From Candidatus Methylomirabilales bacterium (lineage in GTDB: Bacteria > Methylomirabilota > Methylomirabilia > Methylomirabilales > CSP1-5): 64,000 bases of DNA. Position 1 is the first letter of the stretch. Every line of letters starts with the position of its first letter. A program made the translations under genes and the position numbers. This document shows, in pieces, positions 36,981 through 63,999 of the stretch. The stretch covers positions 43,944-107,943 of the forward strand of contig JBHIAH010000004.1 of assembly GCA_046758505.1 (NCBI GenBank), in the 5' to 3' direction. The notes under the pieces were generated by a model. That model worked only from the letters and a program-made list of their open reading frames with translations, searched no databases and was not told the origin of the DNA.

Positions 36981-37940
36981 TTAGGAGCGGGCAAGGGAGC
37001 GGACGAGCGCTGCCAGGTGAGCCGGGGTGGTCCCACAGCAGCCGCCGAGGATCGCCGGCCGGGACGCCAGCAGGAGGGGAAGGGAGCGCACCCAGCCTTC
37101 CGGGTTCTGCGGATCGATCCCCGGTTTTTCTTGTCCGTCGGGGAGCCCTGCATGCGGTTGGGCAATGAGCGGCAGGGCTGTCGCCTCCCGCATCTGCCGG
37201 AGGACCTCCCCCGCATCCGCTGTATCCATGCAGTTGCACCCCACCGCCTGAGCCGCGGAAAGCTCCCGGGCGGCCTCGTGGGGGGAAGCACCGTCCAGGG
37301 TACACAGGCCTCTCCCATGCTGGAAAAACACGAGGCTGACTGCCACGGGAACGGCCGAACCCTGTTGCGCCCCCGCAAGAGCCACCTGCGCCTCGGCCAG
37401 GTGGCTCATGGTCTCGATCATGATCAGATCAACCCCCCCGTCATTCAGGTGGGATACCTGCTCCGCGAACGCAGAGCCGATCTCGCTCCACGGACCCTTG
37501 CGCTTTCCCCCCTGGAAACGCCCCGTCGGCCCCACAGCGCCAGCCACGAGATGCGCGGCGCTCCCGGCCCTCCGGGCGAGCTGAACGGCCGCCCCGTTGA
37601 TGTCTGCAACCCGCCCCTCGAGACCGTACTCCTGCAGCCGAAGACGGTTTGCCCCAAAGGTGTTGGTCTCAAGCAGATCACATCCGACAGCCAGGTAGGC
37701 CTCGTGGATTTCGTGCACCGTCTGTGGCCGAGTCAGATTCCAACGCTCCGGCGGGTCTCCCCGCTGGAGGCCCTTCGCGTGAAGCATCGTCCCAAGCGCC
37801 CCGTCGGCCACCAGGAGCCCCCCCGTGGCAAGCGGCTCACGAATCCCCCCCGTGCGTGCTCCAGGGAGGTTCTGCCCGTCAGGAGGGGGACGGAATGTCA
37901 TGAGACCCCACCCACGCGGTGCCGTTACCCCGTCGTTCAC
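36981..37940 (-). CDS. Homocysteine S-methyltransferase domain protein (stand-alone MetH N-terminal domain)
   Basis: DGALGTML, ETNTFGAN, IETM, GCNC and GGCCGTTP zinc ligands. Confidence 0.88.
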   Translation of the reverse strand: MNDGVTAPRGWGLMTFRPPPDGQNLPGARTGGIREPLATGGLLVADGALGTMLHAKGLQRGDPPERWNLTRPQTVHEIHEAYLAVGCDLLETNTFGANRLRLQEYGLEGRVADINGAAVQLARRAGSAAHLVAGAVGPTGRFQGGKRKGPWSEIGSAFAEQVSHLNDGGVDLIMIETMSHLAEAQVALAGAQQGSAVPVAVSLVFFQHGRGLCTLDGASPHEAARELSAAQAVGCNCMDTADAGEVLRQMREATALPLIAQPHAGLPDGQEKPGIDPQNPEGWVRSLPLLLASRPAILGGCCGTTPAHLAALVRSLARS

Positions 37941-48786: not shown

Positions 48787-49062
48787 CTACGCCCCGCCGG
48801 CGATGGCAGGGACGATCGAGACGTGGTCCCCCGGTTTCAGCGGGGTGGCGGTTCCCTGGAGGAACCGGATGTCCTCATCGTTCACATAGATATTGATGAA
48901 ACGGCGGATATCCCGCCCGTCACACAGCCGTTCTTTCAACCCCTTATACCGTGTCTCCAGGTTCTCAATGAGATCCTGAACGCAGCCCCCTTCTCCCTGC
49001 ACCTCGGCCTGCCCCTGGGTCAGGGTCCGGAGGGGTGTCGGAATCCGGACGAGGACGCTCAT
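48787..49062 (-). CDS. MoaD/CysO-like sulfur carrier protein ending IAGG-A
   Basis: [33 protein letters not shown]. Confidence 0.93.
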
Positions 49063-49086
49063 GGTTTCCTCCGTATCGCTTGCCGA

Positions 49087-50367
49087 TTATCCCCGATGCG
49101 TGCTCAAGGCGCTGACACCGGCATCGAACCCAAGGTCCGGCCGCTCCGTGATCGCCCCATCAAAGGACTTTAGGGTTGGTTTGATGGAGACGGTAGGCTT
49201 GAGCGCGTGAGAGACTACTTCCTGCGTCTTGAGGCCGTTGCCGGTAATGGAAAGCACGACGCTCTCGTCGCGGGGAATGATCCCCTCCTCAATGAGCCGC
49301 TTCGCGACGGCCACCGTGACCCCTCCCGCCGTTTCTGTAAAGATCCCCTCCGTTGCGGCGAGCAGCGTCATCCCGGCGACGATCTCCTCGTCGCTCGCCT
49401 CTCCGGCAAATCCCCGACTCTCCTCGACGGCCTTGTACGCGTAATAGCCGTCCGCCGGGTTGCCGATGGCCAGGGATTTACAAATCGTGTGCGGGCGCAC
49501 GGGCCGAATGGTCTCACACCGGTTACGAATCGCCGTCACGATGGGACTGCATCCGGCCGCTTGTGCCACATGCATCCGGGTGTGAGAATCGGGGATCAAT
49601 CCCAACCGGTGAAACTCCTTGAGTCCCTTCCAAATCTTGGTGACGAGGGATCCGCCGGCCGCGGGGACGATAATGTGCTGGGGGGTGCGCCACCCCAGTT
49701 GCTCGACGATCTCGTAGCCGAAGGTTTTCGACCCCTCCGCGTAATAGGGCCGGATGTTGATGTTCACAAAGGCCCAGCCGTATTTGTCGGCCACCTCGCT
49801 GCAGAGACGGTTGACCTCATCGTAGTTTCCATCGACCGCCACCAGCACCGGATCATAGATCAAGGTCCCGATGATCTTCCCCTGCTCCAGATCGGCCGGA
49901 ACAAAAATAAAGCTCTTGAGACCCGCCTCTGCCGCATGGGCGCCAACGGAGTTGGCCAGGTTCCCCGTAGAGGCGCAAGCGACCACCGGGAACCCAAATT
50001 CCATCGCCTTGGTCACCGCGACCGCCACGACCCGGTCCTTGAAAGAGAGGGACGGGTGGCAAACCGCATCGTTCTTGACGTAGAGTTCCCCGACCCCTAA
50101 TGCATCGGCGAGGTTTTTCGCCCGAATCAGCGGCGTCATGCCGCAATGCCTTCCGACCGGTATCTCCTGTTCGATGGGGAGCAAGTCGCGATACCGCCAG
50201 GCGCTGTACGGGCCGGCCTCGATCCGTTTCCGATTCACGATCGTCTGCAGGCTGGCGTAATCGTAGTCGACCTCGAGCGGCCCAAAGCAGAATTCGCAGA
50301 CGTGGAGCGGCGCGGCTGGATAGGGACGGCCGCACTCCCGGCACTTCAGCCCTCTGATTGTACCCAT
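49087..50367 (-). CDS. Threonine synthase-like PLP enzyme (probable O-phosphohomoserine sulfhydrylase)
   Basis: N-terminal CxxC...CxxC, SFKDR PLP lysine, ASTGN, ITGNGLK; under a SAM riboswitch with a sulfur carrier. Confidence 0.88.
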   Translation of the reverse strand: MGTIRGLKCRECGRPYPAAPLHVCEFCFGPLEVDYDYASLQTIVNRKRIEAGPYSAWRYRDLLPIEQEIPVGRHCGMTPLIRAKNLADALGVGELYVKNDAVCHPSLSFKDRVVAVAVTKAMEFGFPVVACASTGNLANSVGAHAAEAGLKSFIFVPADLEQGKIIGTLIYDPVLVAVDGNYDEVNRLCSEVADKYGWAFVNINIRPYYAEGSKTFGYEIVEQLGWRTPQHIIVPAAGGSLVTKIWKGLKEFHRLGLIPDSHTRMHVAQAAGCSPIVTAIRNRCETIRPVRPHTICKSLAIGNPADGYYAYKAVEESRGFAGEASDEEIVAGMTLLAATEGIFTETAGGVTVAVAKRLIEEGIIPRDESVVLSITGNGLKTQEVVSHALKPTVSIKPTLKSFDGAITERPDLGFDAGVSALSTHRG

Positions 50368-50410
50368 CGAACCCTCCTGAGTCTGGGTTCTGCAGATCGA
50401 TCGACACGCG

Positions 50411-50650
50411 TCACGATTTCTCCCGCACTTCCTCGACCGTGATGCCGAGACGCGTGAGGACCGTCATGCCTCTGGCCAGGTCCTCCTCTTGCCCGTCGAA
50501 CTCCACGAGGACCTCTCCAATCGTGTCCGTGATCCGGGCCTTGCGGATGTTGGGCACCAGGTTGCACTCCTTTGAAACCCGGTGAATCACCGGCTCCTTG
50601 ATGAGATCGGGAGGATACCTTAGAGACCACCGTCGTCTCGCCACGCCCAC
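50411..50650 (-). CDS. Stand-alone NIL domain protein
   Basis: L.YP...IKEPVI......L.PNI.KA.I....G...VE..G pattern. Confidence 0.8.
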   Translation of the reverse strand: MGVARRRWSLRYPPDLIKEPVIHRVSKECNLVPNIRKARITDTIGEVLVEFDGQEEDLARGMTVLTRLGITVEEVREKS

Positions 50651-50660
50651 TCACCCCCTC

Positions 50661-50692
50661 AAAAAAAACCCCCTTCTCCTCATGAGAAGGGG
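50661..50692 (-). terminator. Riboswitch expression-platform terminator
   Basis: Minus strand CCCCTTCTC-ATGAG-GAGAAGGGG-G-TTTTTTTT; its 5' arm (CTTCTCAT) can alternatively pair with the riboswitch P1 3' strand. Confidence 0.85.
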
Positions 50693-50716
50693 TATGCATG
50701 ACCGCTGCGCATCCAC

Positions 50717-50844
50717 CTCCTCATCTCTCACCCCGATGTGCGAGATCGGGATGCAGGAGTTGGCACTTCTTCCCGCCGACTTCGTCGGCGGGACCGTTGC
50801 CGCGGCTTCGTAGGGCCAGTCCCTCAGCCGCTCTTGATGAGAAG
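50717..50844 (-). ncRNA. SAM-I (S-box) riboswitch
   Basis: Minus strand CTCATCAAGAG...GAGGGACTGGCCC...GAAGCCGCGGCAAC...GTGCCAACTCCTGC...AGAGATGAG matches the SAM-I core. Confidence 0.93.
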
Positions 50845-50907
50845 TGAACTCGTATTCAATTGTCGCCTATACAAGCAAATGTCTTCCGTGCTGTCAAGCA
50901 AAAAACC

Positions 50908-51147
50908 TCACTGCACCACGTCCTGCTCGATGGGGCCCACCCGGACGCCCTGCTCCTCCAGCCATCGTATGCCGCTCGCAAGCTGCTCTTCCTCTCCTTC
51001 CAGCTCGGCCATGAGCCACCCGAGCCCCTCCGTGTAATCGGCCTGACGGATGTTGAAGACGAGATCAAAGCGCTCACACGCCTGCCACAACAGCGGCGCG
51101 TCCTTGAGCTTGCCAGGAAAGCTGAGGTGTACCCGCCTCTTCGCCAC
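50908..51147 (-). CDS. Stand-alone NIL domain protein
   Basis: L.FP.....PLL......FDL.FNIRQA.....GWL..ELEG; GTG after GGAGG. Confidence 0.82.
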   Translation of the reverse strand: MAKRRVHLSFPGKLKDAPLLWQACERFDLVFNIRQADYTEGLGWLMAELEGEEEQLASGIRWLEEQGVRVGPIEQDVVQ

Positions 51148-51280
51148 CGCTTCCTCCAGCCGACACACGACCAATTTATTCTACCCGAAATTACAGCCAA
51201 CGACAACCCCGGCGCTCGGATTCGCCTCGCGCGGAATCCGGGAAAACCGCCGCGCCGTGCCTGCGGCATCCCGGAATTAT

Positions 51281-52450
51281 TTAGATGCGGTAGTGGTCGG
51301 TGTTGGCCCACTGCACGAGGATCTCCGCCACCTCGCGCCGGGAGAACTCGGACGGGGGAAGCTCCACCCGGTGCAGCATCTCGCGCACCTTGGTTCCCGA
51401 CAAGCTCACCCGCTCCTCGGGGCCGTGCGGGCAGGTCTTGGTCGTCGCCATGCCGTGGCAGCGCCGGCAATAGAAGGCATGATCGAAAAAGAGAGGCGTG
51501 ATGCCGAGTTCTGCGGCCGAAAATTCCTGAAAGATCGCGTGGGAGTCGAACGTCCCGTAATAGTTCCCCACCCCGGCATGATCCCGGCCGACAATGAAAT
51601 GGGTACACCCGTAGTTCTTGCGGATGAGGGCGTGAAAGATCGCCTCCCGCGGCCCCGCGTAGCGCATGGCCGCCGGGAGGACCGACAGGATCACCCGATC
51701 CTTCGGATAGTACCCATCCAACAGAACTTCATAGCAGCGCAGCCGCGTTTCCGGGGGGATGTCATCGGGCTTGGTCTCTCCCACCAACGGGTGGAGGAGG
51801 AGTCCATCCACCACCTCGAGGGCGCACTTCTGGATGTACTCGTGAGCCCGATGGACCGGGTTTCGGGTCTGAAAGCCCACCACCGTCCGCCACCCCCGAT
51901 CTGTAAAGGCCCGACGCGTCTCTCTGGGGGTGAGATGGTAGGGATCAAAGCCGGGATACTGGGGGCGCTCGAGGAGACGGACGGGGCCGGCCAAGAGCAC
52001 CTCTCCCTGCGCGTAGAGGGCGTGGACACCCGGGTGGGCCTCGTCGGTCGTCCGGTAGACCTCCGACGCCTCCCGCTTCTTATCATACGGGAACTTCTCG
52101 CGAAGCTCCAGGAGACCTCGGGGCTCCCCCTCCTCATCTACGAGGGCGAGCTCCGCCCCCACGGCAAGCAAAGCGGCCTGGCCCTTCCCCACCGCTAACG
52201 TGACGGGAATGGACCAGGGAAGGCCGTTCGCCAAACGCATCTCCGTCACCACCCGTTCGTAATCGGCCCGCCCCATGAACCCATCCAGGGGACTCAGGCC
52301 TCCGATCCCGATCAGGTCCAGGTCCGAGCGCTGCCGTAGATTCAGGTGGATGGACTTCAGGCCACGGGCCCGCCGCCGCGCCTCTGCCTGCTCGTCTGGC
52401 GGCACGAGCCGGTCGATCAGTCTCCCTCCGTGCGGCGCAATCGTGCTCAT
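51281..52450 (-). CDS. sat: Sulfate adenylyltransferase
   Basis: [37 protein letters not shown]. Confidence 0.97.
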
Positions 52451-52466: not shown

Positions 52467-53219
52467 TCATGAACGAGACCGGCCTGTCTCCACGGGCGTG
52501 ACGTGCAGGCCGCACTCCTTGCTTTCGGGTGTCTCCCACCACCATCGCCCGGCCCGGATATCCTCTCCTGGCTTGATCGCCCGGGTACACGGGGCGCAAC
52601 CGATGCTGGGAAACCCTACATCATGGAGCGCGTTGTACGGAACGTCGTGGGTATGGATGTAGTCCCACACCTGCTCCACGGACCAGTCGACCAACGGGTT
52701 CACCTTGATGATTCCGCCATGACTCTGATCACATTCCACCTTATGCATCGCGGTTCGGGTGACCGCTTGCTCACGCCGGAGTCCGGTCACCCACGCATCG
52801 AGTCCCTCGAGCGCCCGGCCCAGGGGCTCGACCTTTCGGATCCCACAGCAAAACTTGCGCTCCTCCACACTCCGCCGAAAGGAGTAAAATCCCCTCTCCC
52901 GTTCCAGGGCCTCTACCGCTTCCCGGTCGGGAAAATAACTCTCGACGGAAATCCCGTATCGTTCCCGGATCCGCTCCATCACGGTGTAGGTTTCTTCGTG
53001 AAGGCGACCGGTGTCCAGCGTAAAGACCCGAACGTGGGGATTCATCTTCCAGGCGATGTCCAGGATGACCATGTCTTCCACCTGGAGGCTCGTGGCGAGG
53101 GCGATCCGGGGATGAAACCGATCCAGGCTCCACCGGAGTACCGCCTCGGCGTCCTGCTCCTCGAATCGAGCCGCCACGTCCTTGATCTCTGCTTCATCCA
53201 CCAGGTTTTTCTGTTCCAC
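52467..53219 (-). CDS. cysH: Assimilatory APS reductase (4Fe-4S CysH type)
   Basis: [37 protein letters not shown] after AAGGAGG. Confidence 0.94.
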
Positions 53220-53335
53220 GCCTGCCTCCTTTCCGATCCGCCGCTGTGCCGTCTCTCGACCTGCGCAACGCATCCCTTCCGGACATGGATGCATCCAGAA
53301 GGGCATACAATGGCGTACCCGTCTTCCTTCCTTCG

Positions 53336-54268
53336 TTACGGACGTTCCTCTGCCGCGGTCTCCCCGCGAATCCCCGCCACAACATTTTTCCGATCACCCG
53401 GAGGCCGGCCGGCGAGATACCCGACCGTGGCCCGCAGCATGGGCCCCAACTTGTACTCGTCCGGCATGACATCGACCGAGACTCCATTGTCTTCAATGGC
53501 CTGTCGGGTGGGGGGGCCCACTGCGACGACCACTACCGCCCCGTTCAGGGCTTGGCGTAACGCGTCCTCGAGCCCGTGGGCTTCCGCAAACCGGAAGAGG
53601 TTCTTGACCGACGGTGGGCTGGTGAATGTCATGACATGTATCGCCCCCCTCCCCACATCGTGAATCAGCTCGAGGATCCTGCGCTCCTCGGGAGGGAACG
53701 ACTTGAACCCCGCCGCCTCCAAAAGTTGCGCGCCCTCCTTCTTGAGGTCCAGCGCATAGGTGTACGCCATCGCCTCGAAGACGTCCGCTCCACCCTGCTC
53801 GAGGGTCGCCCGGAGCGTGGGGTGGGAGTCGCCATGCCAGAGAACGGTCACGTGTTTGCCGTGCAGGTCGAACCTGGCCATCTCGGCGGCGATCCCCTCC
53901 GACGTATTGTCGGATGGTACCAGGTTCACGCGTATTCCGTGCCGCTCCAACACCTTCTGTGGCTTTTGGCTTCTCGCGATCACATACGTGCGGTCTAAGA
54001 CGTCCACCACCTCCCGCTCCAACCCCAGTCGTTGGGCCGTCGCCATCAACCGAAAGACCCCCGGGCCCGTCAAGAAGACCGCATAGTCAACTGCTCGACC
54101 GACGATCCGGTGCACCAACCCTTCCATTTGAAGGTCCAGATCCTCCTGGATTGCAATGCCCACCGTGGGAGCCACATAGGGGACTCCCCCGAGCTTCGTC
54201 ACGAGCTGGGCGAGCTCGGACGCTCTTCGGCTGCCGGTAACCGCCACTGTCAGACCCTGAAGCTCCAT
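53336..54268 (-). CDS. hemD: Uroporphyrinogen-III synthase family protein
   Basis: VAVTGSRR, FLTGPG, FTSPPSV, AVGPPT; next to sulfite reductase. Confidence 0.85.
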   Translation of the reverse strand: MELQGLTVAVTGSRRASELAQLVTKLGGVPYVAPTVGIAIQEDLDLQMEGLVHRIVGRAVDYAVFLTGPGVFRLMATAQRLGLEREVVDVLDRTYVIARSQKPQKVLERHGIRVNLVPSDNTSEGIAAEMARFDLHGKHVTVLWHGDSHPTLRATLEQGGADVFEAMAYTYALDLKKEGAQLLEAAGFKSFPPEERRILELIHDVGRGAIHVMTFTSPPSVKNLFRFAEAHGLEDALRQALNGAVVVVAVGPPTRQAIEDNGVSVDVMPDEYKLGPMLRATVGYLAGRPPGDRKNVVAGIRGETAAEERP

Positions 54269-54306
54269 CCCACACCCTTGGCGTAGCCCCGACCGCGCTC
54301 TCCCCC

Positions 54307-56100
54307 TTACGCCGCGCACTCCCCAGGACCCGTCTTGAGCTCGAAGGCCTCTTCCGCCTCCCAATCCTGGAACCCGTCTGGGGCCTCTGCGTAAGTGGGG
54401 AGCTGGGTGAACTCGGCCATGATCTCCGCCACGCGATCCAGCCCGAGACGGTCCATGAAGGTCAGCAGGGCTTCCCCCTCTGTCCGATCCGCCTTAAAAA
54501 CCGTCAGGAGCGCGTCGATGGCCATCGGAATATTCTTTGCCGGAATCCGTAGCGTGGGCTTGCCGAACCGGGCGGTCCCATCATCCCAGGTTCCCCCCAG
54601 AAGCATTTGATAGGTCGGCACCTGGCGTCCCTCGAATTTTTTCGCCCCGCCGTAAAAGCCAATCGTGCCGAGATGGTGGTGGCCGCACGAGTTCGGGCAG
54701 CCCGAGATCTTGATCCGTCCCTTCACGTCCTCGGCCAGGTCGGGGTGCTTCTCCTGCACCATCCCCGCGATCGCGGTCGCCAACCCCCGGGAAGAGGTGA
54801 TGCCGAGCTGGCAGGTGTCTGCGCCGGGGCAGGCGGTGACGTCGACGAGCCGCTCGGCCCCGCGCCGAGCCAGGTCGATGCGGCGGAGCACCCGGTAGAG
54901 GGCCCCCAGGGCCCCTTCCGGGACCCACCGGAGAAGAAAGTTCTGCTGATTTGTCGTCCTGACGGTGCCGTCTCCAAACTCCCGGGCACAGAACCCCAGG
55001 AGTCGAAGCTGGAGTGCGGTGATATCCCCGAGTTCCAAACAGACCGTGACCATGACGTACCCCGGCTGCTTCTGGGGCCGGACGTTGCTCCGTCGCCAGC
55101 GCTCATAGGCGGCGTCATTGGGATCGGGGAGCGCCGCTGGCGCCGGCCTCCGGGGTGGAGGCACCTCTTGCCGGACGATGATCGGAGGAAACTTGCCGCC
55201 CATGGTCAGCCGTAGGCCTGTCCGTTCTTTGAAGACCAGCTTTTGGAATTTCTCTACGCCCAGCTCCTGGATGACGAACTTCATCCGCGCCCGATTGCGA
55301 TTCTCCCGGTTGCCGAAGCGATCAAAGACCCTGACAATGGCCGCCACGGTGACCAGCAGGTCGTCCGCCGGGGTGAACTCTTCGAGGACGTCGGCATGGT
55401 GAGGCACGGGCCCGAGCCCTCCGGCCACAATCAGCCGGAAGCCCCGGTGGCTCATCCCGTTCTCCTGATGTAGGAGCGCCCGCGCCCCAATGTCGTGAAT
55501 CGCCGTAATTCCCTCGTCGTCCGGGCATCCCGAAAAGGCGATTTTGAACTTGCGCGGAAGATTCTGGTTCATCGGGTTCCGCAGGAGAAAGCGCGCCACC
55601 GCCTCGGCGTACGGCGTAACGTCGAAGACCTCCCGCGGGCAGACGCCCGAGCAGGCCCCGGCAGTGACATTGCGCACGGTATTTCCGCACGCTTCTCGCG
55701 TCGTCAACCCGACCTTTTCTAAATGCCGCATAAACTCGGTTGCCTCGGTCAGCTTGACGAAGTGTAGTTGGATGTTCTGGCGGGTCGTGACATGGCCGAG
55801 GCCGCCCGGGGTCCGCTTGGCCAGGTCCGCCAAGACCTCCAGCTGGTCAGTCGTCAGCCCGCCCCAGGGGATCTTGATTCGAAACATCTGTTCTCCCTGT
55901 TGGCGCTGACCGTAGACGCCGTTCTGAAGGCGAAAGCGTTTGAACTCGTCCTCCGACAACTGCTTTCGCCAAAACCGCTGGACAAACTCGTCAAAGGTAT
56001 CGATCTCCTCCTGCCGGGCATAGGAGGGACGGACGGCTAGGGGCTTATCCTCTATGGCGATGGTCGCCTTGTTGGCATCCCGATCCTGTACCTGCTGCAT
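54307..56100 (-). CDS. sir: Ferredoxin-dependent sulfite/nitrite reductase (siroheme)
   Basis: GVYGQRQ, HVTTRQNIQ, LPRKFKIAFSGC, CPGADTCQ...ISGCPNSCG. Confidence 0.92.
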   Translation of the reverse strand: MQQVQDRDANKATIAIEDKPLAVRPSYARQEEIDTFDEFVQRFWRKQLSEDEFKRFRLQNGVYGQRQQGEQMFRIKIPWGGLTTDQLEVLADLAKRTPGGLGHVTTRQNIQLHFVKLTEATEFMRHLEKVGLTTREACGNTVRNVTAGACSGVCPREVFDVTPYAEAVARFLLRNPMNQNLPRKFKIAFSGCPDDEGITAIHDIGARALLHQENGMSHRGFRLIVAGGLGPVPHHADVLEEFTPADDLLVTVAAIVRVFDRFGNRENRNRARMKFVIQELGVEKFQKLVFKERTGLRLTMGGKFPPIIVRQEVPPPRRPAPAALPDPNDAAYERWRRSNVRPQKQPGYVMVTVCLELGDITALQLRLLGFCAREFGDGTVRTTNQQNFLLRWVPEGALGALYRVLRRIDLARRGAERLVDVTACPGADTCQLGITSSRGLATAIAGMVQEKHPDLAEDVKGRIKISGCPNSCGHHHLGTIGFYGGAKKFEGRQVPTYQMLLGGTWDDGTARFGKPTLRIPAKNIPMAIDALLTVFKADRTEGEALLTFMDRLGLDRVAEIMAEFTQLPTYAEAPDGFQDWEAEEAFELKTGPGECAA

Positions 56101-56163: not shown

Positions 56164-56997
56164 TCACCATGTCGTTCCGACAACCGTGACGGCGCCTACC
56201 AGGCTTACCACGACGCCGATGAATTGTCGCATCCCGGCCGCCGAAAACCGATTTGCCCTCCGAACCCCAAGATATACTCCCACGCCCCCTGCCAGCAGCA
56301 GCGGAAGAAAAACTCCCACGGGGAACGTCCCCGTCTGAAGGGTATATGAGCCGGTCGCGGCTGACGCCACCAGCGATCGGGCCAGCAGTGAAGAGCCCAC
56401 GACGGTGTGGGGCGGAATCCCTGTCCACATCATCAAGACGACACCGATCGTTCCCCACCCCGCCCCGAATGCCCCCGCACAGAATCCGGCAACCGCTCCG
56501 ATGCCGAAAAGGGTTTGGCGCCTGTCACGCCATTTCACGGTTTCAAAGCCGTTTTGCGACCCGTTTCCATTTTTCCTGAGCAGCGTCAGAACGCCGATGG
56601 TCACCGTAATCACACCAATCAGCACCCGCAGGGTCTGCGCCGGCAATGCCGGACTCAGAAAACTCCCCAGGAAGGCTCCTCCCACCCCTCCGAGAACCAG
56701 CGGGACGAGGGCGGCGACGCGCGATCGGTCATAGCGCCAATGGGTCAGACCCCCGAACAGGCTCAGCACGATGGAAGCTGCCAGAGACGAGTTGATCGCG
56801 ACTAACGGCTCGATCCCGATCACAATCAGCAACGGGACGCTCAACGCCCCCCAGGCCGCGGCAGAGATCCCCGTCACCCATCCCGACACGATTCCGACGA
56901 AGACAATTGCAGACATTGAAGCCGTCACCACATGTATTCTTCCCAAACGCGAGGTCAACATCATCCGGGGCGAGCCCGGTCCGTGGGGATCGGTCAC
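56164..56997 (-). CDS. TauE/SafE family membrane transporter
   Basis: About 8 TM helices, G.VSG...G and AG.FGAGWG repeat motifs. Confidence 0.8.
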   Translation of the reverse strand: MTDPHGPGSPRMMLTSRLGRIHVVTASMSAIVFVGIVSGWVTGISAAAWGALSVPLLIVIGIEPLVAINSSLAASIVLSLFGGLTHWRYDRSRVAALVPLVLGGVGGAFLGSFLSPALPAQTLRVLIGVITVTIGVLTLLRKNGNGSQNGFETVKWRDRRQTLFGIGAVAGFCAGAFGAGWGTIGVVLMMWTGIPPHTVVGSSLLARSLVASAATGSYTLQTGTFPVGVFLPLLLAGGVGVYLGVRRANRFSAAGMRQFIGVVVSLVGAVTVVGTTW

Positions 56998-57665
56998 CCC
57001 GTGGGCAAGAAAACCTCCTGCGGGCGGCGACCCCGCAGCTTGTCGATCAGCGCCCGCAGGGCCTCCTCAAGGCTCTCCCCGTACACCGTCAGTTCGGGCC
57101 GCGGTACTTGCTGGGGGTGATCGGGACGAGCCATGCACCGCTTCCCCGGTTCCTGGACCTCCCCCAGGGTTTCTTCCACCAGGAGGTCCAGGGTACTCCA
57201 GGCACACCCGACGGCCCTGAGATATCGGAACCGATGGGTCCGAATGAGACGCTCGCTTGCGGTGAGGAATGCCCCCGGAGACGTCCCGGCCGCTGTGGGC
57301 ACCTCCTCGAGGCCCTGCTCACCCTCTGGAGGAGAAGACTCCAGTGGGTATTCCTGCGTCTCCCACCGCTGAATTCCCCCTTCCAGGTTGTACACCTCGC
57401 CAAGCCCGATCGCCGCCGCCGCTTCGCAGGCGACGGCGCTCCTGATCCCTTCTGAGCAGATGAAGAGCACGGCCCCTTCTTTCAGGAACTCCCGCGGGGT
57501 GCGAAGCAGCGTCCCGAGAGGGACGAGGATCGAGCCCGGGATCCGCACCTGGGCGTACTCGTTGGGCTCCCGGACGTCAACAACCTGGGCCCCCCTCTCC
57601 ATCAAGGCCTTTGCCTCTGCAGGCTCAATCCGAGAAAAGGGTTCATCCGCCAGGGGCTCCGTCAT
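56994..57665 (-). CDS. Single-domain rhodanese with an unknown C-terminal domain
   Basis: VDVREPNEY..RIPG, ICSEGIRS, NLEGGI..W, then about 100 unassigned residues. Confidence 0.82.
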   Translation of the reverse strand: MTEPLADEPFSRIEPAEAKALMERGAQVVDVREPNEYAQVRIPGSILVPLGTLLRTPREFLKEGAVLFICSEGIRSAVACEAAAAIGLGEVYNLEGGIQRWETQEYPLESSPPEGEQGLEEVPTAAGTSPGAFLTASERLIRTHRFRYLRAVGCAWSTLDLLVEETLGEVQEPGKRCMARPDHPQQVPRPELTVYGESLEEALRALIDKLRGRRPQEVFLPTG

Positions 57666-57677
57666 GCGAGACTCTCC

Positions 57678-58520
57678 TTATTTTTCGATCGGAACATGCA
57701 CCAGACTGCCATACTCAGTCCACGAGCCGTCGTAGTTGAGCACCGTGGAATAGCCCAGGAGGTACTTCAGCACGAACCAGGTGTGGGAGGAGCGCTCGCC
57801 GATCCGGCAATAGGCGATGATCTCCTTGTTCGGGGTGATCCCCTTGCCCTGGTAGAGTTGCGTGAGGTCCTCCGCGCTCTTGAAGGTCCCGTCCTCCTTG
57901 ACTGCCTGGCTCCAAGGGATATTCGCCGCCCCCGGAATATGCCCGCCGCGCTGGGCCCCTTCCTGGGGCAGGTTTTCGGGGGCTACAATTTCGCCGGAGA
58001 ATTCTTTCGGCGAGCGGACATCCACGAGGGCCAGCCCCGCCTTGCCAACCGCGCCGATGACTTCGTCCCGCACCACCCGGATGCTCTTATCGGACTTCTG
58101 CGCCTTATAGGTGGTGGCCGGATAGTTCGGCACCTCTTTGGTCATAGGTCGCCCCTCGGCGATCCATTTGACCCGCCCTCCGTTCATGACCCGGGCGTCG
58201 GCATGACCGTAGTACTTGAGCAACCAGAACGCATAGGTGGCAAACCAGTTATTGTTGTCACCGTACAAGATCACGGTCGTGTCGTTCTGAATCCCCGACC
58301 GACTGAGCAGCTTCTCCAGGGTCTGGCGGTGAACGATGTCGCGTTCCAGCCGCTCCTCCAGATCGCTTTTCCAGTTCCAGCCAATGGCCCCGGGAACATG
58401 CCCTTCGCCATAGGCGGCCGTGTCCACGTCCACCTCCACCAGCCGGATCTTGGGGTCCTTCAGGTGATCCGCGACCCACTGGGTCTCCACCAACACCTCG
58501 CCATGTGCGTAGCCTGCCAT
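57678..58520 (-). CDS. Two-domain thiosulfate sulfurtransferase (actinobacterial CysA-like rhodanese)
   Basis: GHVPGA, LYGDNNNWFA, AYCRIGERSSHTWF, NYDGSWTEYG. Confidence 0.95.
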   Translation of the reverse strand: MAGYAHGEVLVETQWVADHLKDPKIRLVEVDVDTAAYGEGHVPGAIGWNWKSDLEERLERDIVHRQTLEKLLSRSGIQNDTTVILYGDNNNWFATYAFWLLKYYGHADARVMNGGRVKWIAEGRPMTKEVPNYPATTYKAQKSDKSIRVVRDEVIGAVGKAGLALVDVRSPKEFSGEIVAPENLPQEGAQRGGHIPGAANIPWSQAVKEDGTFKSAEDLTQLYQGKGITPNKEIIAYCRIGERSSHTWFVLKYLLGYSTVLNYDGSWTEYGSLVHVPIEK

Positions 58521-58624: not shown

Positions 58625-59023
58625 CTATGCGACCATCACCTCCTCCTCGCTGATCTGGCCATTCGTAATTCGAAAGGCGCGAATCACCGGTGCGTCTCGC
58701 TTCTCCAGGGAAACGATGAAGTAGAGGGCCTCGGGATAGAACGCGAGCTCCACGTCGGTCTTCGAGGGATAGGCCTCGCTGTGGGTGTGGGAGTGGTAGA
58801 TCCCAATGAGATCCCACCCCTTCTGATCCAGCTCCCGCATGACCCGGAGTTGATCCCTCGGATCGAGGTAGTAGCGATACGGGCTCTTTTCGGCACTGTC
58901 GCAGCGATAGAGCTGCAGAACCACCCCCCCGGTGCCAGCCAGGAGGCCACAACACTCGTTCGGGGCCTCTGTCCGCGCGTGATCGATCATCGCCGCCGCG
59001 AACTGCTTTTCCAGCTTGAACAT
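58625..59023 (-). CDS. mec: JAMM/Mov34 (M67) metallopeptidase, Mec-like CysO-cysteine peptidase
   Basis: PNECCGLL and YHSHTHSEAYPSKTD (HxHx7Sx2D). Confidence 0.92.
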   Translation of the reverse strand: MFKLEKQFAAAMIDHARTEAPNECCGLLAGTGGVVLQLYRCDSAEKSPYRYYLDPRDQLRVMRELDQKGWDLIGIYHSHTHSEAYPSKTDVELAFYPEALYFIVSLEKRDAPVIRAFRITNGQISEEEVMVA

Positions 59024-59059: not shown

Positions 59060-60274
59060 TTACCACCAGATGTGACTATAGACATCCTCGCCGAGATCAG
59101 GCAGCTCCTTGGCCCACACGCCCAGGCTGATATACTTCCACCCCCCGTCGGCGAGCAGGCAGACGATCTTCCCCCGCTCCATCTTGTGGGCCGTCCGAAT
59201 CGCGCAGTGGAGCACGGCGCCCGACGAGACCCCCGCAAAGATCCCCTCCTTGATCGTCAGATCCCGGGTCAAGGCAAAGGCGCAGCGCGAATCGACAATG
59301 ATCTTTCCGTCCAGGAGGCTCAGATCCAGGATGGGGGGGATGAACCCTTCCTCCAAACTGCGGAGCCCCTGAACGAGATCGCCCGGATGGGGCTCTACGG
59401 CGATCACCTGCGTCTTCGGGTTCGCCTCCTTGAGCCGCCGCCCCACCCCCATGAGGGTCCCCCCGGTCCCCAGCCCGGCCACGAACAGATCCACGTCCGG
59501 CACCGCTTCGAGGATCTCCGTGCCCGTGGTCTCGTAATGCGCGCGGGGATTCGACTCGTTGCCGTACTGGTACGGCATGTACCAATCGGGGTTCTCGGCG
59601 GCGAGCCGCTTGGCCAGATCGATGGCCCCGTTCGTCCCCCGGCGCGCATCGGAGTATACGATTTCCGCACCGTACAGCTCCAGCAATTGCCGCCGCTCGA
59701 CGGTAATGTTCTCGGGGACGACCACCTTCACCCTGTACCCCTTCCGCCGACCGATCAAGGCTAGGGAAATCCCGGTATTGCCGCTGGTGGGCTCGAGGAT
59801 CGTCTTTCCAGGGGTCAGCGCTCCTCGCTCCTCCGCCTCCTCGATCATATACTTGGCGATCCGGTCCTTCAGGCTCCCCGTCGGATTGTAGAATTCGAGC
59901 TTGCAGAAGATTCGAACCGACGGCTTGGGGCTGACCCGGGGTACCTCCACCAGGGGGGTGTGTCCGATGGCGTCCACGATGTCAGCGTATGTGCCGGGGT
60001 AGCCTCCCCCCGCGACCGCTGGGAGGATGGAGATGGTATCCCCCTCCCGCACCTCCGTATCCAGGGACTCGAGGAACCGGATATCCTCATCGTTCCGATA
60101 CACGTTCACGAACCGGTGAAGCTCCTTGCCATCCAGCAGCCGATCCCACAGCCCCGGATAGGCCTTGTCCAGGCTCTCCAGGACCTCACGGACCGTCCTC
60201 CCCTCGCCGGTGATCGTCTTTGCGCCGCCGGTGTGCTTTCGAAAGATCTGGGGAACGTGCACCTGAACCTTCAT
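59060..60274 (-). CDS. CysO-like sulfur carrier fused to CysM-type cysteine synthase
   Basis: Residues 1-90 MoaD-like ending LPAVAGG; continuous into IGHTPLV, NPTGSLKDR, EPTSGNTG, GTGGT, DGGWKY. Confidence 0.92.
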   Translation of the reverse strand: MKVQVHVPQIFRKHTGGAKTITGEGRTVREVLESLDKAYPGLWDRLLDGKELHRFVNVYRNDEDIRFLESLDTEVREGDTISILPAVAGGGYPGTYADIVDAIGHTPLVEVPRVSPKPSVRIFCKLEFYNPTGSLKDRIAKYMIEEAEERGALTPGKTILEPTSGNTGISLALIGRRKGYRVKVVVPENITVERRQLLELYGAEIVYSDARRGTNGAIDLAKRLAAENPDWYMPYQYGNESNPRAHYETTGTEILEAVPDVDLFVAGLGTGGTLMGVGRRLKEANPKTQVIAVEPHPGDLVQGLRSLEEGFIPPILDLSLLDGKIIVDSRCAFALTRDLTIKEGIFAGVSSGAVLHCAIRTAHKMERGKIVCLLADGGWKYISLGVWAKELPDLGEDVYSHIWW

Positions 60275-60346: not shown

Positions 60347-60634
60347 TCACCGGGGCTTAGAGACACCCCCACCCTTTCGGACCACAATGGCCCATTCGCG
60401 ATCGGTGAACTGACGCACCTCCAGAACCTCGTTTCCCTCACTGGCCAGGCTCCGCGGCACGTCGGCCGCAGACCGGGGATTGTCCACGATGACCCGGAGG
60501 ACTTCGCCCGCCTCCAGTTGTTCCAAGGCCAGTTTGGACTTCACAAACGTGTACGGGCAGACCTCGCCCCGGAGGTTCAGTTCCTCATCGACCGTGTCTT
60601 TCTCGGACACGAAAGATCCCTCGCTTTCTCTCAT
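60347..60634 (-). CDS. TusA/YeeD family sulfur carrier
   Basis: LNLRGEVCPYT..K...L..L..GE.L.V..D. Confidence 0.9.
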   Translation of the reverse strand: MRESEGSFVSEKDTVDEELNLRGEVCPYTFVKSKLALEQLEAGEVLRVIVDNPRSAADVPRSLASEGNEVLEVRQFTDREWAIVVRKGGGVSKPR

Positions 60635-60714
60635 GGCCGCACCGCGATTTCGGTCATCAGCATCAATGTTTCCCTCCGGCGGATGAGATGCACGCGCTCA
60701 CCCCGGACAGCACC

Positions 60715-60978
60715 TCATGCCGAACCGCCCTTTTCAATCTCGATCTCCCACAGCGCATCCCCCACCTTGTCAACCCGAATGACCCTGTGCCCCTCGTCGG
60801 CCGCCCAGCGTGGGATATTCTCCGCAGAAAGGGGATAATCGGACACCACGATCAGGATGTCCCCCGGCTCGAGCTTCTTTATCTCCCGCTGGGCCATGAC
60901 GAGGGGATAGGGGCAGATCTCCCCACGCGTATCGAGCCGATGAACCTTCCGCTCTTGGGCCTGCCCCGGCACCGTCAT
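60715..60978 (-). CDS. TusA/YeeD family sulfur carrier
   Basis: LDTRGEICPYP; L.PGD.L...SD.P.S..NIP.W. Confidence 0.92.
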   Translation of the reverse strand: MTVPGQAQERKVHRLDTRGEICPYPLVMAQREIKKLEPGDILIVVSDYPLSAENIPRWAADEGHRVIRVDKVGDALWEIEIEKGGSA

Positions 60979-61943
60979 TACTTCTCCAGCGGAAGCTCGG
61001 GCCGATTCCCCCAGTCGATCCAGGAGCCATCGTAGTTACGGACCTTCTCGTACCCCAGCAGTCGGGCAACAAAGTAGTCGTGCGCCGCCCGGACCCCGGT
61101 CCGGCAGTAGGTCACAATCTCACGATCTCTTGTGGCGCCCGCCGCCTCAAAGAGCTTTTGGAGCTCTGCTGCGCTCTTGAAGGTCCGATCTCCAGTGTTA
61201 ATGGTATCGACCCAGTTGATCAGCACGGCCCCGGGGATGTGGCCCCCCCGCCTGATGTCGGGATCCTTCACCTTTCCCGGGTGAGTCCGCTTTCCTTCAT
61301 ATTCCATCGGAGTCCGCGCATCCACCACGCGGACCCCGGGATTCCTGAGGTTGTCCTTGATCCACTCCGCGGTGGCGATCAGCGTGGGATTCGGGCTGGC
61401 GACAAATTTTTTCGGTGCGACCGTGGTTTTCTCCGCCGTCAGGGGCCGGCCCTCTTTCATCCACCGCGTGAGGCCCCCGTTGAGCACGGCCACGTTCTTA
61501 TGCCCGAAGAACTCAAGGACAAAGAAAAGGCGCGCCGCCCAAAGCCCGCCGGTGTCGTCATAGGCAACGACCCGCGTATCGTTGTCAATCCCGAGCTTGC
61601 TGAAGAGGGCCTCCGCTTTGGCCCGATCCATGGGAAGTCCCTTCCGGTTGCTCGCGAGATCGTCGATCTCCGTCCAGTCGACGTAGACCGCTCCCGGGAT
61701 ATGCGCCTTGGCGTACTCCGCCTTCCCGGCAGGCCCTTTCGCCCGGAGATCGACCAGGCGAATGGAGGGATCGCCCAGGTGGTCTGCAATCTCCTGCGTA
61801 TCTATCAACAGCTGTGCGTTCGGATATCCCGCTTTTTTCGCCTGTTGGCCCCAACACTGTGCCCATGCCAGCCCGCCAATGGTCAAAAGCAGGACCAGCG
61901 TACCGACGACAATAGCGATCCTGCTGTACCGGATGCTACGCAT
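60978..61943 (-). CDS. Exported two-domain rhodanese
   Basis: Signal peptide ending AWA, AHIPGA, GHIPGA, TYCRTGVRA, NYDGSW; start at ATG 61943. Confidence 0.9.
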   Translation of the reverse strand: MRSIRYSRIAIVVGTLVLLLTIGGLAWAQCWGQQAKKAGYPNAQLLIDTQEIADHLGDPSIRLVDLRAKGPAGKAEYAKAHIPGAVYVDWTEIDDLASNRKGLPMDRAKAEALFSKLGIDNDTRVVAYDDTGGLWAARLFFVLEFFGHKNVAVLNGGLTRWMKEGRPLTAEKTTVAPKKFVASPNPTLIATAEWIKDNLRNPGVRVVDARTPMEYEGKRTHPGKVKDPDIRRGGHIPGAVLINWVDTINTGDRTFKSAAELQKLFEAAGATRDREIVTYCRTGVRAAHDYFVARLLGYEKVRNYDGSWIDWGNRPELPLEK

Positions 61944-62940
61944 GTCGAGCTCTCCTCTCGAAGACCATCTTCCCGAATAACACATACGCCCCGATCCATA
62001 CCCCAGCGACGATGCCTGCCGTGGCCGTCAAGCTGCTCAAGGCGAGCATGGGAACACCCGTGAGGCTGTGGCCGATGTTACATCCGCCGGCGATGCCCGC
62101 ACCGACCCCCATCAGCGCTCCCCCCCCAAACGCCTGGAGCAGCCGGACGGGGCTAGGGGCGCGCCAGGCAAATTCCTTGTGGCCGATGGCACCCAGAAAA
62201 GCCCCCAGGGGAATCCCGAGCCACATGAAGCTTGACCAATTCAACCACCGGATCTCTCCCGTGAAGAGGTATCGGAACAGGGTGGCAATGGGCTCCGTGA
62301 TCGACAACCCGTACTGCCGACCGGTGCTCGCCGATAGGACCCACGCCACGACCCCGATCAGGCCGATGATCCCGCCCGCCACGGGCCACTTCCACCCCCG
62401 CGCGTATGTGTCGATTGCACCTCGCGCGCACCACCAGGTTCCCGCCACGACCAGGACCCCGATGACAACCCAATGATTGATGCCCAAGAGCGCGCTCAGT
62501 GTCGGTTCCCTGCCGACCGGGACGATCGTCGCCTGGAGCGCCCGCTGGATCGGCCGGAGCACGCCCAAATTCGTCATGGTAACCCCGATCCCGAATCCGA
62601 TAAAAGCGAGGATTGATGCAACCATGCCCTCCCCCGACCGGTAGGAGATACCGCTCGCTCACCCGCCTGCGTTCGCCATGCCGAACCCGAAGATGAGGCC
62701 GCCTACCACGGTGGCCTGCCAGAAGAAGGGAGCCATGTTCCGCATAATCATACCGAGGTCGGCAAGTAGGTTGAGCCCGACGAGTTGGACCAGGACCGCC
62801 ACCACGTACGCCCGCAGCAGCGTGAAGTCCCGCGCCACGAGCACATCGCGAAAGGCGGTGTTCATGCAGAACCGCCCGCGCTGCAGGGCGTACCCGAACG
62901 CAAGGCCCACTGGAAAACCGAGGAGCACTGCCTTAAGCAT
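61936..62940 (-). CDS. yeeE: YeeE/YedE (TsuA) thiosulfate transporter, predicted selenoprotein (UGA at codon 94)
   Basis: Track ORFs 62659-62940 and 61936-62625 are in one frame; read-through gives GMANAGG-U-ASGISYRSGEG; also RGRFC and AGGCNIG; 334 aa. Confidence 0.88.
62629..62647 (-). promoter_or_regulatory. Bacterial SECIS-like hairpin
   Basis: CUCCU-A-CC[GGUC]GG-GGGAG starting 11 nt after the in-frame UGA at 62661-62659. Confidence 0.7.
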
Positions 62941-62955
62941 CCGCGGCGCCCCGTA

Positions 62956-63216
62956 TCACCAACAGGTTACTCGATCGCACTGAAATACCAGTTCCACGAC
63001 CCCCCGGTAATCGACCGCCTTGAGGTGCCCCCCCGTTACTCCTCGGGCTTCGAGGTCTGCCGCGGTCGCATAAAGGGGGAGCGCGGTCTCCCGGGAAGAG
63101 AGAACGCCATCCTGCCAGAGCAGGACCGACACCTCATGTCCCCCTTTGGCCTGCGCCTCGCCCACCTCCCAGGCCCACGTCTCTCTTGGATCCTTGATGA
63201 TATGCAGATACCTCAT
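62956..63216 (-). CDS. DsrH/TusB-like sulfur relay protein
   Basis: LLWQDGV, DLEARG, VDY..VVEL......TCW; start at ATG 63216. Confidence 0.82.
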   Translation of the reverse strand: MRYLHIIKDPRETWAWEVGEAQAKGGHEVSVLLWQDGVLSSRETALPLYATAADLEARGVTGGHLKAVDYRGVVELVFQCDRVTCW

Positions 63217-63219
63217 CGC

Positions 63220-63312
63220 GTCCGATGTCCAAGGTCCGAGGTCCGATATCCGAAGTAAGACGGCCGACCGACACCCCCTTACAACGAACATAGAACGTCG
63301 AACTTCGAACTC
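63220..63312. repeat. Inverted 7-bp tandem repeat element
   Basis: GTCCGAT-GTCCAAG-GTCCGAG-GTCCGAT-ATCCGAA facing GAACATA-GAACGTC-GAACTTC-GAACTC. Confidence 0.7.
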
Positions 63313-63660
63313 CTAAAACGGGACCACGACGTCAGACTCCTCCAGAAGCTTCAGGACCTCCGCCCGGTCCAGGACCTCCACCGCCGGGTGCAAGGAGAAC
63401 CCACCCAGTGCCGCATGCGATCGGCGGTCCGCCACCACGCGGTGCCCCAGCGCCTTCAGGGCCTCGAGGTGCTTTGCCACCCCCGGTTGTCCGATCCGCT
63501 CCGCCCTGAGCCCCGTCGCCCCGGCAACGACGCCATGCTCCACCAGGAGAGCGGTCACCTGATGGGGAGCCAGCGTGTACCCCACGGCAACCCGTAGCGC
63601 CTCGCTCGCCCGTATGGTATTCAGCGGCAGATGGCGAATCAGCACGGTGATCCGTTTCAT
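63313..63660 (-). CDS. DsrF/TusC-like protein
   Basis: R..P.....SEALR.A.G, D.V.PF C-terminus; between DsrE-like and DsrH-like genes. Confidence 0.78.
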   Translation of the reverse strand: MKRITVLIRHLPLNTIRASEALRVAVGYTLAPHQVTALLVEHGVVAGATGLRAERIGQPGVAKHLEALKALGHRVVADRRSHAALGGFSLHPAVEVLDRAEVLKLLEESDVVVPF

Positions 63661-63666
63661 GATCCC

Positions 63667-63999
63667 TCACCCGAAGACCAGAAAACGATCCGCCCGGTGA
63701 AGGATCTGGGCGTGATCGTATTGACTCCCAAAGGTGACACCCGCGATGGCGGTCTCTTTGGTCACGCCCCGGGGATCGCAGTTGGACCCGCAGAGGGTAA
63801 TGGTCGCCCCCGCCTCTTGGAGGGCGGCGAACTCCCCGGCCACCGGGTTGTCCCCGACATCGAGGATGTTGTACACCCCGTCATCCATCAGAAACAGCTC
63901 CACTTGGTGTCCCAGCCCCAAGGCGGCCCGGGCAACCCGAAGGGCGCTGACCGAGTTTTGGTGTTCCGGCGAGGTCGTGAGCAACATCCCCAGTCTCAT
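63667..63999 (-). CDS. DsrE/TusD-like sulfur relay protein
   Basis: TTSP, VELFLMDDGVY, ITLCGSNC..RG, GSQY, DRFLVFG. Confidence 0.88.
   Translation of the reverse strand: MRLGMLLTTSPEHQNSVSALRVARAALGLGHQVELFLMDDGVYNILDVGDNPVAGEFAALQEAGATITLCGSNCDPRGVTKETAIAGVTFGSQYDHAQILHRADRFLVFG

Follow-up and report, generated by a model that had tools for sequence, protein, structure and literature searches.

The question posed by this locus is why a riboswitch for S-adenosylmethionine (SAM) should precede a gene annotated as threonine synthase. The window that we analyzed is a stretch of 64,000 nucleotides from a Candidatus Methylomirabilales bacterium (assembly GCA_046758505.1, contig JBHIAH010000004.1), and the nearest named homologs are those of Candidatus Methylomirabilales/NC10. 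On the minus strand of this window, a SAM-I riboswitch is followed by genes for a stand-alone NIL-domain protein (NIL1), a pyridoxal 5′-phosphate (PLP) enzyme that resembles threonine synthase (ThrC), and a sulfur carrier (Table 1). With a probability of roughly 85%, we read this operon as the part of methionine synthesis that makes homocysteine, by way of the thiocarboxylate route of MetM and MetO; this function is predicted. This reading draws on a separate canonical thrC gene, the absence of a recognizable alternative route to homocysteine, the position of the enzyme in a distinct clade that also holds an actinomycete SAM-I/thrC-like/moaD locus, its linkage to the carrier, and the SAM-I riboswitch. 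The same chemistry had been proposed in an earlier note on this DNA, and the analysis supports it.

Here and below, statements on published work refer to the accessible portions of the cited sources. The MetM/MetO route of Streptomyces albulus was published in 2024, and its steps are given as MetO, Mec, MoeZ, and MetM (GapMind 2026, 10.1101/2024.10.14.618325; PMC13759103). MetM is a threonine synthase homolog that is often misannotated as threonine synthase (GapMind 2026, 10.1101/2024.10.14.618325). The S. albulus metM gene has a SAM riboswitch upstream, and its cyanobacterial homologs had already been noted by Hasebe et al. (per PMC12172450). The locus described here resembles that system in having a ThrC homolog misannotated as threonine synthase, an adjacent carrier, an upstream SAM riboswitch, a JAB protease, an E1 enzyme, and a supply of O-phosphohomoserine. 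It differs from it by belonging to another phylum, by carrying one NIL gene within the operon and another (NIL2) upstream, by an E1 in which ThiF is fused to a carrier and a rhodanese domain is lacking, by a carrier capped with Ala, and by adjoining a full sulfate-assimilation cluster.

A MetM-like enzyme in a genome with a separate canonical threonine synthase

The source genome encodes five members of the ThrC family. One is a canonical thrC, the search for which had been set beforehand as a test of the proposal; it lies on contig C25 directly after hom, has the top score against the thrC model TIGR00260 (338 bits), and its product is 36% identical to the MetM-like enzyme. As the earlier note had held, the thrC annotation of the gene in the window would be wrong, in line with what is described for MetM. 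All five paralogs pass TIGR00260, so this model does not discriminate between them. The other three family members of this genome (G000 C20:19753–21606, C42:20090–21421, and C2:110199–111368) keep the equivalent of R160 (numbering below), and at its C-terminus the 617-residue protein from C20 carries a domain similar to the regulatory end of 2-isopropylmalate synthase.

The MetM-like enzyme has its PLP lysine at K110 and an N-terminal CxxC...CxxC extension; a Pfam match of residues 8–32 to NinF was dismissed because it spans the CxxC motif only. An AlphaFold model (predicted local distance difference test 90) has the threonine synthase fold, and the top Foldseek matches are threonine synthases. 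Canonical ThrC (Thermus thermophilus 1uim, Bacillus subtilis 6cgq, Aquifex aeolicus 2zsj) shares with the enzyme the fold-type II PLP fold, the PLP lysine, and probably the substrate (Foldseek E 1e-30; template modeling score 0.75/0.90; identity 33–36%). The enzyme here is set apart by its clade, the CxxC extension, predicted SAM control, carrier linkage, and replacements at T88, S155, N157, R160, Q164, and N188 (T. thermophilus ThrC numbering from the 1uim alignment). At sites that are invariant in 13 canonical ThrCs, the 108 members of its group have T88→L, N157→R, and R160→Y without exception, and S155→N in 107; N188 is replaced by S, G, or A in 108/108, and F134→Y and Q164→S are also fixed differently. 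Judged by these residues, of which T88, S155, R160, and N188 are taken to be ligands of the substrate phosphate in ThrC, the enzyme is one with a rebuilt substrate site and a distinct active-site signature.

A quick tree was built from 103 proteins, with rows below 300 aa and 23 of 29 close relatives set aside; in it, the enzyme falls into an 87-row group (SH-like approximate likelihood ratio test 99) apart from the 13 canonical ThrCs. A tree of a 42-row subset gave the group a support of 100/100, and forced grouping with canonical ThrC was rejected (approximately unbiased test, p-AU 0.0002). The clade also holds cyanobacterial copies of MetM-like type, 56–59% identical to the window enzyme, and the Nonomuraea SAM-I/thrC-like/moaD locus, whose enzyme and carrier are each 52% identical to those of the window and whose enzyme shows the same signature. 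These trees contain long branches, and since they include neither a cysteate synthase sequence nor S. albulus MetM, the Nonomuraea locus serves as a proxy for the latter. The phylogeny suggested as a check in the earlier note separates the enzyme from ThrC, with MetM represented by this proxy and cysteate synthase by a profile model (TIGR03844: 56.7 bits; cut-off, 324.9 bits).

Canonical and MetM-like genes also coexist in relatives. Among 80 related loci, which are kin and so not independent samples, 12 contain a canonical thrC (at least 55% identity) within the same locus. Of 50 further genomes drawn from the 80 loci, mostly those without an adjacent canonical thrC, 39 encode a separate protein that shares at least 54% identity with the C25 ThrC. 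In Nitrospirota (L025, L027, L029, L030, L034–L037, L041, L046, and L091), canonical thrC comes directly behind the MetM-like gene, the carrier, and NIL, in some of these loci after hom, E1, and JAB, so that both O-phosphohomoserine branches lie in one operon. Across the cyanobacterial loci (L058–L084), the carrier gene nearly always follows the MetM-like gene, and each of the 17 cyanobacterial-clade genomes searched also encodes a canonical ThrC of its own.

We then asked whether the source genome (2.99 Mb, 96.8% complete, 149 contigs) could form homocysteine in another way. Profile searches returned no MetA, no HcyBio/DUF39 (PF01837), and from the MetY/MetZ/MetB family (PF01053) weak partial matches alone (best E 3e-9). 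A MetX-like gene was rejected as homoserine acetyltransferase, as it scores as an E22-family esterase (454.8; cut-off, 450) and falls below all MetX cut-offs. The NIL genes are not a sign of the DUF39 route, because PF01837 is missing and both NILs stand alone. O-Phosphohomoserine can be supplied by hom and thrB (TIGR00191, 262 bits, above cut-off); a HomK candidate (182 vs 446 bits) was discarded and is unneeded given thrB. CysE/CysK are present, as is a split MetE pair. Complete MetH was also rejected: an isolated homocysteine S-methyltransferase domain (319 aa, window positions 36981–37940) lacks the other modules, and it lies near genes for a CoA-transferase and a methylmalonyl-CoA mutase-like protein.

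MetY scores above cut-off in 7 of 151 sampled genomes of the phylum and in 1 of 43 of the order, and 1 of 66 order genomes has HcyBio. In five families, none of 33 genomes, one of them closed, has a MetY-family match at E ≤ 1e-30; in two other families such matches occur in 8 of 10 genomes, 7 of them below cut-off. In one genome (G056), an additional SAM-I riboswitch precedes metY, which marks this switch as a sign of homocysteine genes in the order.

The SAM-I switch and its conservation

The aptamer matches the full RF00162 model (positions 1–108), and its score of 81 bits exceeds the gathering threshold of 44.4 (E 1.7e-17). It is the sole RNA family matched in an Rfam scan of the whole window and the only RF00162 match in the source genome. 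Downstream, a 9-bp hairpin (50670–50692) with a U run forms an intrinsic terminator. Its 5′ arm (50682–50690) repeats the 5′ strand of P1, so that the 3′ strand of P1 (50716–50724) can pair over 9 bp with either. In constrained folds of the full leader, P1 plus terminator reaches −91.4 kcal/mol vs −87.6 kcal/mol for the antiterminator; before the terminator is complete, the antiterminator is at −76.6 vs −74.3 kcal/mol for P1. These energies, nearly equal for two folds that shut each other out, fit an OFF switch as modeled. The terminator hairpin arm CCCCTTCTC is common to the relatives examined. The order of elements given in the earlier note, with SAM-I and terminator/antiterminator ahead of NIL, a ThrC-like gene, and a MoaD-like carrier ending AGG-A, is confirmed by these data and by Pfam matches. 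A conserved leader peptide within the platform was considered and rejected, since the start of the 10-codon ATG frame at 50681–50713 is kept in the genus but not in the other families compared; this ATG comes directly after a strong purine run, and the frame contains one Met.

Two elements were absent from that description, namely NIL2 upstream of the riboswitch and a promoter-like element in the 64-nt gap between them. NIL2 is the last gene of an upstream sulfate-assimilation run and, lying directly 5′ of the riboswitch, is outside its control. The promoter-like element was not called by a consensus promoter scan. Of 30 order loci examined, 24 matched an aptamer pattern, and all 24 have TTGACA upstream of the aptamer, with TG three bases ahead of the −10 position in 22; among the other six, Rfam finds SAM-I in three and nothing in three. 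From this conserved TTGACA, the NIL-metM-metO operon probably has its own promoter.

A MetM-like gene occurs in 39 of 43 sampled genomes of the order, in two of them as a partial match. By manual comparison of the tables, 36 of these 39 carry SAM-I within about 410 nt upstream of the gene. In the remaining three, the gene lies at a contig edge (G071) or no SAM-I was found (G006 and G069). The latter two belong to one family; in G069 (L121, about 2990–3010), the riboswitch is deleted from the −35 box onward and NIL2 runs into NIL1, and in G006 (L111, 1031–1260), unrelated sequence takes its place. These absences may be real losses or misassemblies.

Among the 80 related loci, which come from many phyla, neighbors other than the carrier include NIL (45), E1 (29), CysK/M (22), and JAB (15). 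SAM-I-bearing loci were found in deltaproteobacterial, zetaproteobacterial, Chloroflexota, and actinomycete records. The suggestion of the earlier note that this is MetM/MetO chemistry in a different lineage is supported as far as the phylum differs from that of Streptomyces, though the gene is not confined to any single lineage. In the Nonomuraea record (L096, NZ_LT559118.1), SAM-I abuts the enzyme start and a terminator is absent, which suggests that this locus is under translational control. The record is filed as a plasmid of 11.85 Mb and looks like a Nonomuraea chromosome.

Proposed chemistry and alternatives

The carrier gene is present in 76 of the 80 related loci, and in 74 it lies within 500 nt downstream of the enzyme gene. 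The terminal GG is invariant in 57 aligned homologs. In the window carrier, it is followed by one residue, Ala, which by its sequence must presumably be trimmed. The JAB protease is the only one found in the source genome (a single tblastn match) and is a candidate for both carrier maturation and product release. The single ThiF-family E1 (contig C6, ThiF domain 295 bits) is fused to a carrier and, unlike MoeZ, has no rhodanese domain, so that loading of sulfur would need stand-alone donors. Two more carrier domains are joined by GG ends to partner enzymes, one to CysM (59060–60274) and one to this ThiF (G000 C6:112–1224, L131), the latter after rrf2-cysK. A fourth carrier, with a 16-residue tail, sits on C108 beside an ABC transporter. 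One JAB protease would have three different carriers to process.

The chemistry that we propose is an analogy with what is known of threonine synthase and of CysM/CysO/Mec. Transcription would start at the operon's own promoter. With SAM bound, P1 would form and the terminator close; without SAM, the 3′ strand of P1 would capture the 5′ arm of the terminator and NIL-metM-metO would be read, as expected from the SAM-I family. The JAB protease would then remove the Ala after GG, the C6 E1 would adenylate the exposed end, and sulfur from the neighboring sulfite reductase/rhodanese/TusA relay would yield the carrier thiocarboxylate (carrier-COSH). ThrB would provide O-phosphohomoserine, from which the PLP enzyme would eliminate phosphate, and the thiocarboxylate instead of water would add at C-gamma. 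An S-to-N acyl shift would give carrier-homocysteine, from which the JAB protease would release homocysteine for methylation by the split MetE pair. Finally, NIL would most likely act as a dimeric methionine-binding regulator of one pathway step, which is the least certain part of this scheme.

A carrier thiocarboxylate as donor, activation by E1, and JAB trimming or release are shared with the methionine route of Wolinella succinogenes and with mycobacterial CysM/CysO/Mec. The Wolinella route reportedly uses a MetY-type enzyme with O-acetylhomoserine; it differs from the present case in that the source genome has no MetY. CysM makes cysteine. Operons with carrier, E1, JAB, and cysteine synthase are described in PMC1779556, the accessible text of which contains neither threonine synthase nor NIL as whole words.

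Several observations weigh against homocysteine formation by this route. The enzyme scores 270 bits against TIGR00260 (cut-off, 167). Elsewhere in the phylum than in this order, SAM-I occurs in only 2 of 107 genomes, and it was found upstream of only 9 of the 29 related loci scanned with Rfam, a set that contained no cyanobacterial locus. No canonical-type ThrC was found in 11 of the 50 further genomes, 4 of which have a single family member; completeness is not given for these genomes. Judged from the source genome alone, the missing metY could also reflect incompleteness. Orthology to S. albulus MetM is by proxy and by the 51.6% figure published for the Microcystis homolog and MetM (PMC12172450), although the assignment of the locus as MetM/MetO-like, which shows every genomic feature that could be tested, is well supported at this level. 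For the homolog from Microcystis aeruginosa, threonine synthase and deaminase activities were observed in vitro, the authors read it as a threonine synthase/deaminase, and methionine did not rise in vivo (PMC12172450).

Of the alternatives, an O-phosphohomoserine sulfhydrylase that uses free sulfide, with the carrier dispensable or serving another reaction, survives best, and we consider it improbable. A sulfite reductase-like gene 4 kb upstream and the sole E1 without a rhodanese domain are compatible with it, as are an unidentified peak observed with Na2S (PMC12172450) and the four related loci without a carrier gene, two of which are cut by a contig or locus end. The close spacing of enzyme and carrier genes in 74 loci, the invariant GG, and the description of MetM as dependent on MetO thiocarboxylate (GapMind 2026, 10.1101/2024.10.14.618325) argue against it.

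Still less probable is a role as an additional threonine synthase, or as a threonine synthase/deaminase of the kind proposed for Microcystis, with SAM control serving to partition O-phosphohomoserine. The TIGR00260 score, the fold matches, and the in vitro threonine synthase kinetics of the cyanobacterial homolog speak for this role; the same report calls threonine formation weak by high-performance liquid chromatography (PMC12172450). A canonical thrC is already present, and in 12 relatives it stands in the same locus; neither repression by SAM nor the conservation of a sulfur carrier would make sense for threonine; and the organism would be left without a route to homocysteine. The Microcystis thrC (metM)/metO pair resembles the present one as a non-canonical ThrC gene adjoining a carrier gene; its products share 51.6% and 47.25% similarity with MetM and MetO (PMC12172450). 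It differs in having no SAM riboswitch, as PMC12172450 reports, and in that the cyanobacterial loci of our set contain no NIL. Threonine raises expression of the two genes 10.5- and 6.8-fold, an effect that methionine reverses for thrC (PMC12172450). Such behavior would fit a methionine-starvation response, and carrier-COSH is not among the sulfur sources that the accessible text describes for the assay (PMC12172450).

Least probable is transfer of the carrier sulfur to another acceptor, such as O-phosphoserine (cysteine/cysteate chemistry) or another activated homoserine: substrate-site residues that differ from ThrC, the ThrC-like nature of cysteate synthases, and the 22 loci with cysK/M neighbors would allow for it, whereas the cysteate synthase score, the coverage of cysteine by CysE/CysK and the carrier-CysM fusion, and the absence of MetA and a true MetX for acyl-homoserine tell against it.

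NIL proteins, sulfur neighborhood, and implications

The closest solved structures to NIL1 are the C2 domains of MetN (E 5e-10). In MetN, N295 mediates the binding of methionine across the C2 dimer, N295A abolishes binding, and A299 marks a register shift (PMC6233128). N34 and A38 of NIL1 align with these two residues, and of 106 aligned NILs, 102 have N and all 106 have A at the equivalent positions. NIL1 is therefore a candidate methionine sensor by sequence. Like the C2 domain of MetN and the NIL/ferredoxin that belongs to the DUF39 (HcyBio) route, the NILs here belong to the NIL fold family and are linked to methionine metabolism (PMC6233128; PMC5764234). They differ by being free or, in relatives, fused behind the GG of a carrier, with no ATPase or ferredoxin partner and with DUF39 absent.

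The NIL1/NIL2 pair is conserved across the order. NIL is missing from 35 of the 80 related loci, the cyanobacterial ones included, which makes it an accessory, and none was noticed among the open reading frames (ORFs) of the Nonomuraea proxy locus. Of 39 longer proteins that match the NIL profile, 34 are carrier-NIL fusions, in nearly all of which GG is kept and followed by a linker of variable length; such a fusion occurs in 4 of the 80 loci. By analogy with the carrier-CysM and carrier-E1 fusions of the source genome, they fit a polyprotein cut by JAB, which need not imply binding. An apparent PALP+NIL fusion (P0158) was rejected, as it is a fragment whose middle is garbled, probably by read-through of a frameshift.

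That the stand-alone NIL is a free methionine sensor giving the MetM/MetO route allosteric feedback is a tentative idea, which we regard as rather unlikely. A NIL dimer, possibly NIL1/NIL2, would bind methionine across the beta-sheet interface as MetN C2 does, and the bound form would then inhibit MetM, E1, or carrier loading. If so, it would provide a second, protein-level control beneath the SAM riboswitch and a substitute for it in lineages without one, and in many carrier-NIL fusions the sensor would be made 1:1 with the carrier. A literature search found no paper linking NIL to MetM/MetO; the primary S. albulus study was outside its scope and may list NIL or NC10 homologs.

Upstream of the operon, a same-strand sulfur cluster of about 13 kb reaches the contig end. 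Besides the genes in Table 1, it comprises, at 60347–63999, genes for two TusA proteins, for a rhodanese whose N-terminus is hydrophobic, for a YeeE-type sulfur transporter, and for three DsrE/DsrH-like proteins, possibly a module for thiosulfate uptake and relay. The carrier-CysM fusion is a candidate for a parallel thiocarboxylate route to cysteine.

Table 1. Features of the operon and the adjoining sulfur genes (window coordinates)
Feature	Position	Strand	Evidence or predicted role
MetO-like ThiS/MoaD sulfur carrier, 91 aa, C-terminus AGG-A	48787–49062	−	PF02597
MetM-like fold-type II PLP enzyme, 426 aa, annotated "threonine synthase"	49087–50367	−	PALP; TIGR00260
NIL1, stand-alone NIL-domain protein, 79 aa ORF	50411–50650 (probable start 50644)	−	PF09383, E 3e-12
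Expression platform	50661–50724	−	terminator hairpin 50670–50692 and U run; antiterminator 50716–50724 with 50682–50690
SAM-I riboswitch aptamer (RF00162)	50718–50843	−	Rfam covariance model
Promoter-like element	50869–50897	−	TTGACA 50892–50897; 17 nt spacer; weak extended −10 TTGTAT 50869–50874
NIL2, second stand-alone NIL protein	50908–51174 (probable start 51147)	−	PF09383, E 1e-14
sat	51281–52450	−	sulfide supply
cysH	52467–53306	−	sulfide supply
hemD-like	53336–54364	−	sulfide supply run
Sulfite/nitrite reductase-like	54307–56100	−	sulfide supply
TauE	56164–56997	−	candidate sulfur-relay stretch
Single-domain rhodanese	56994–57665	−	candidate sulfur relay
Tandem rhodanese	57678–58520	−	candidate sulfur relay
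JAB/Mec-type metalloprotease	58625–59023	−	PF14464
Carrier-cysteine synthase fusion (CysO-CysM-like)	59060–60274	−	ThiS and PALP domains; TIGR01136 340 bits (cut-off 344)

The pathway itself is already published and included in GapMind, and for this reason the surprise is modest; NIL is an undescribed accessory in the literature searched. The predicted function would correct a widespread misannotation as threonine synthase, and L137, N204, R206, and Y209 (window enzyme numbering) offer a simple signature that separates MetM-like proteins from ThrC. It also suggests that the "moonlighting ThrC" of Microcystis is open to re-reading as part of a methionine-starvation response. For the Methylomirabilales, and with them the Methylomirabilis-type genomes that yielded no MetY/MetZ/MetB or HcyBio route, the operon would supply the missing homocysteine step. 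Should NIL prove to be a free methionine sensor, it would add a new regulatory layer to a pathway that is present in many phyla.

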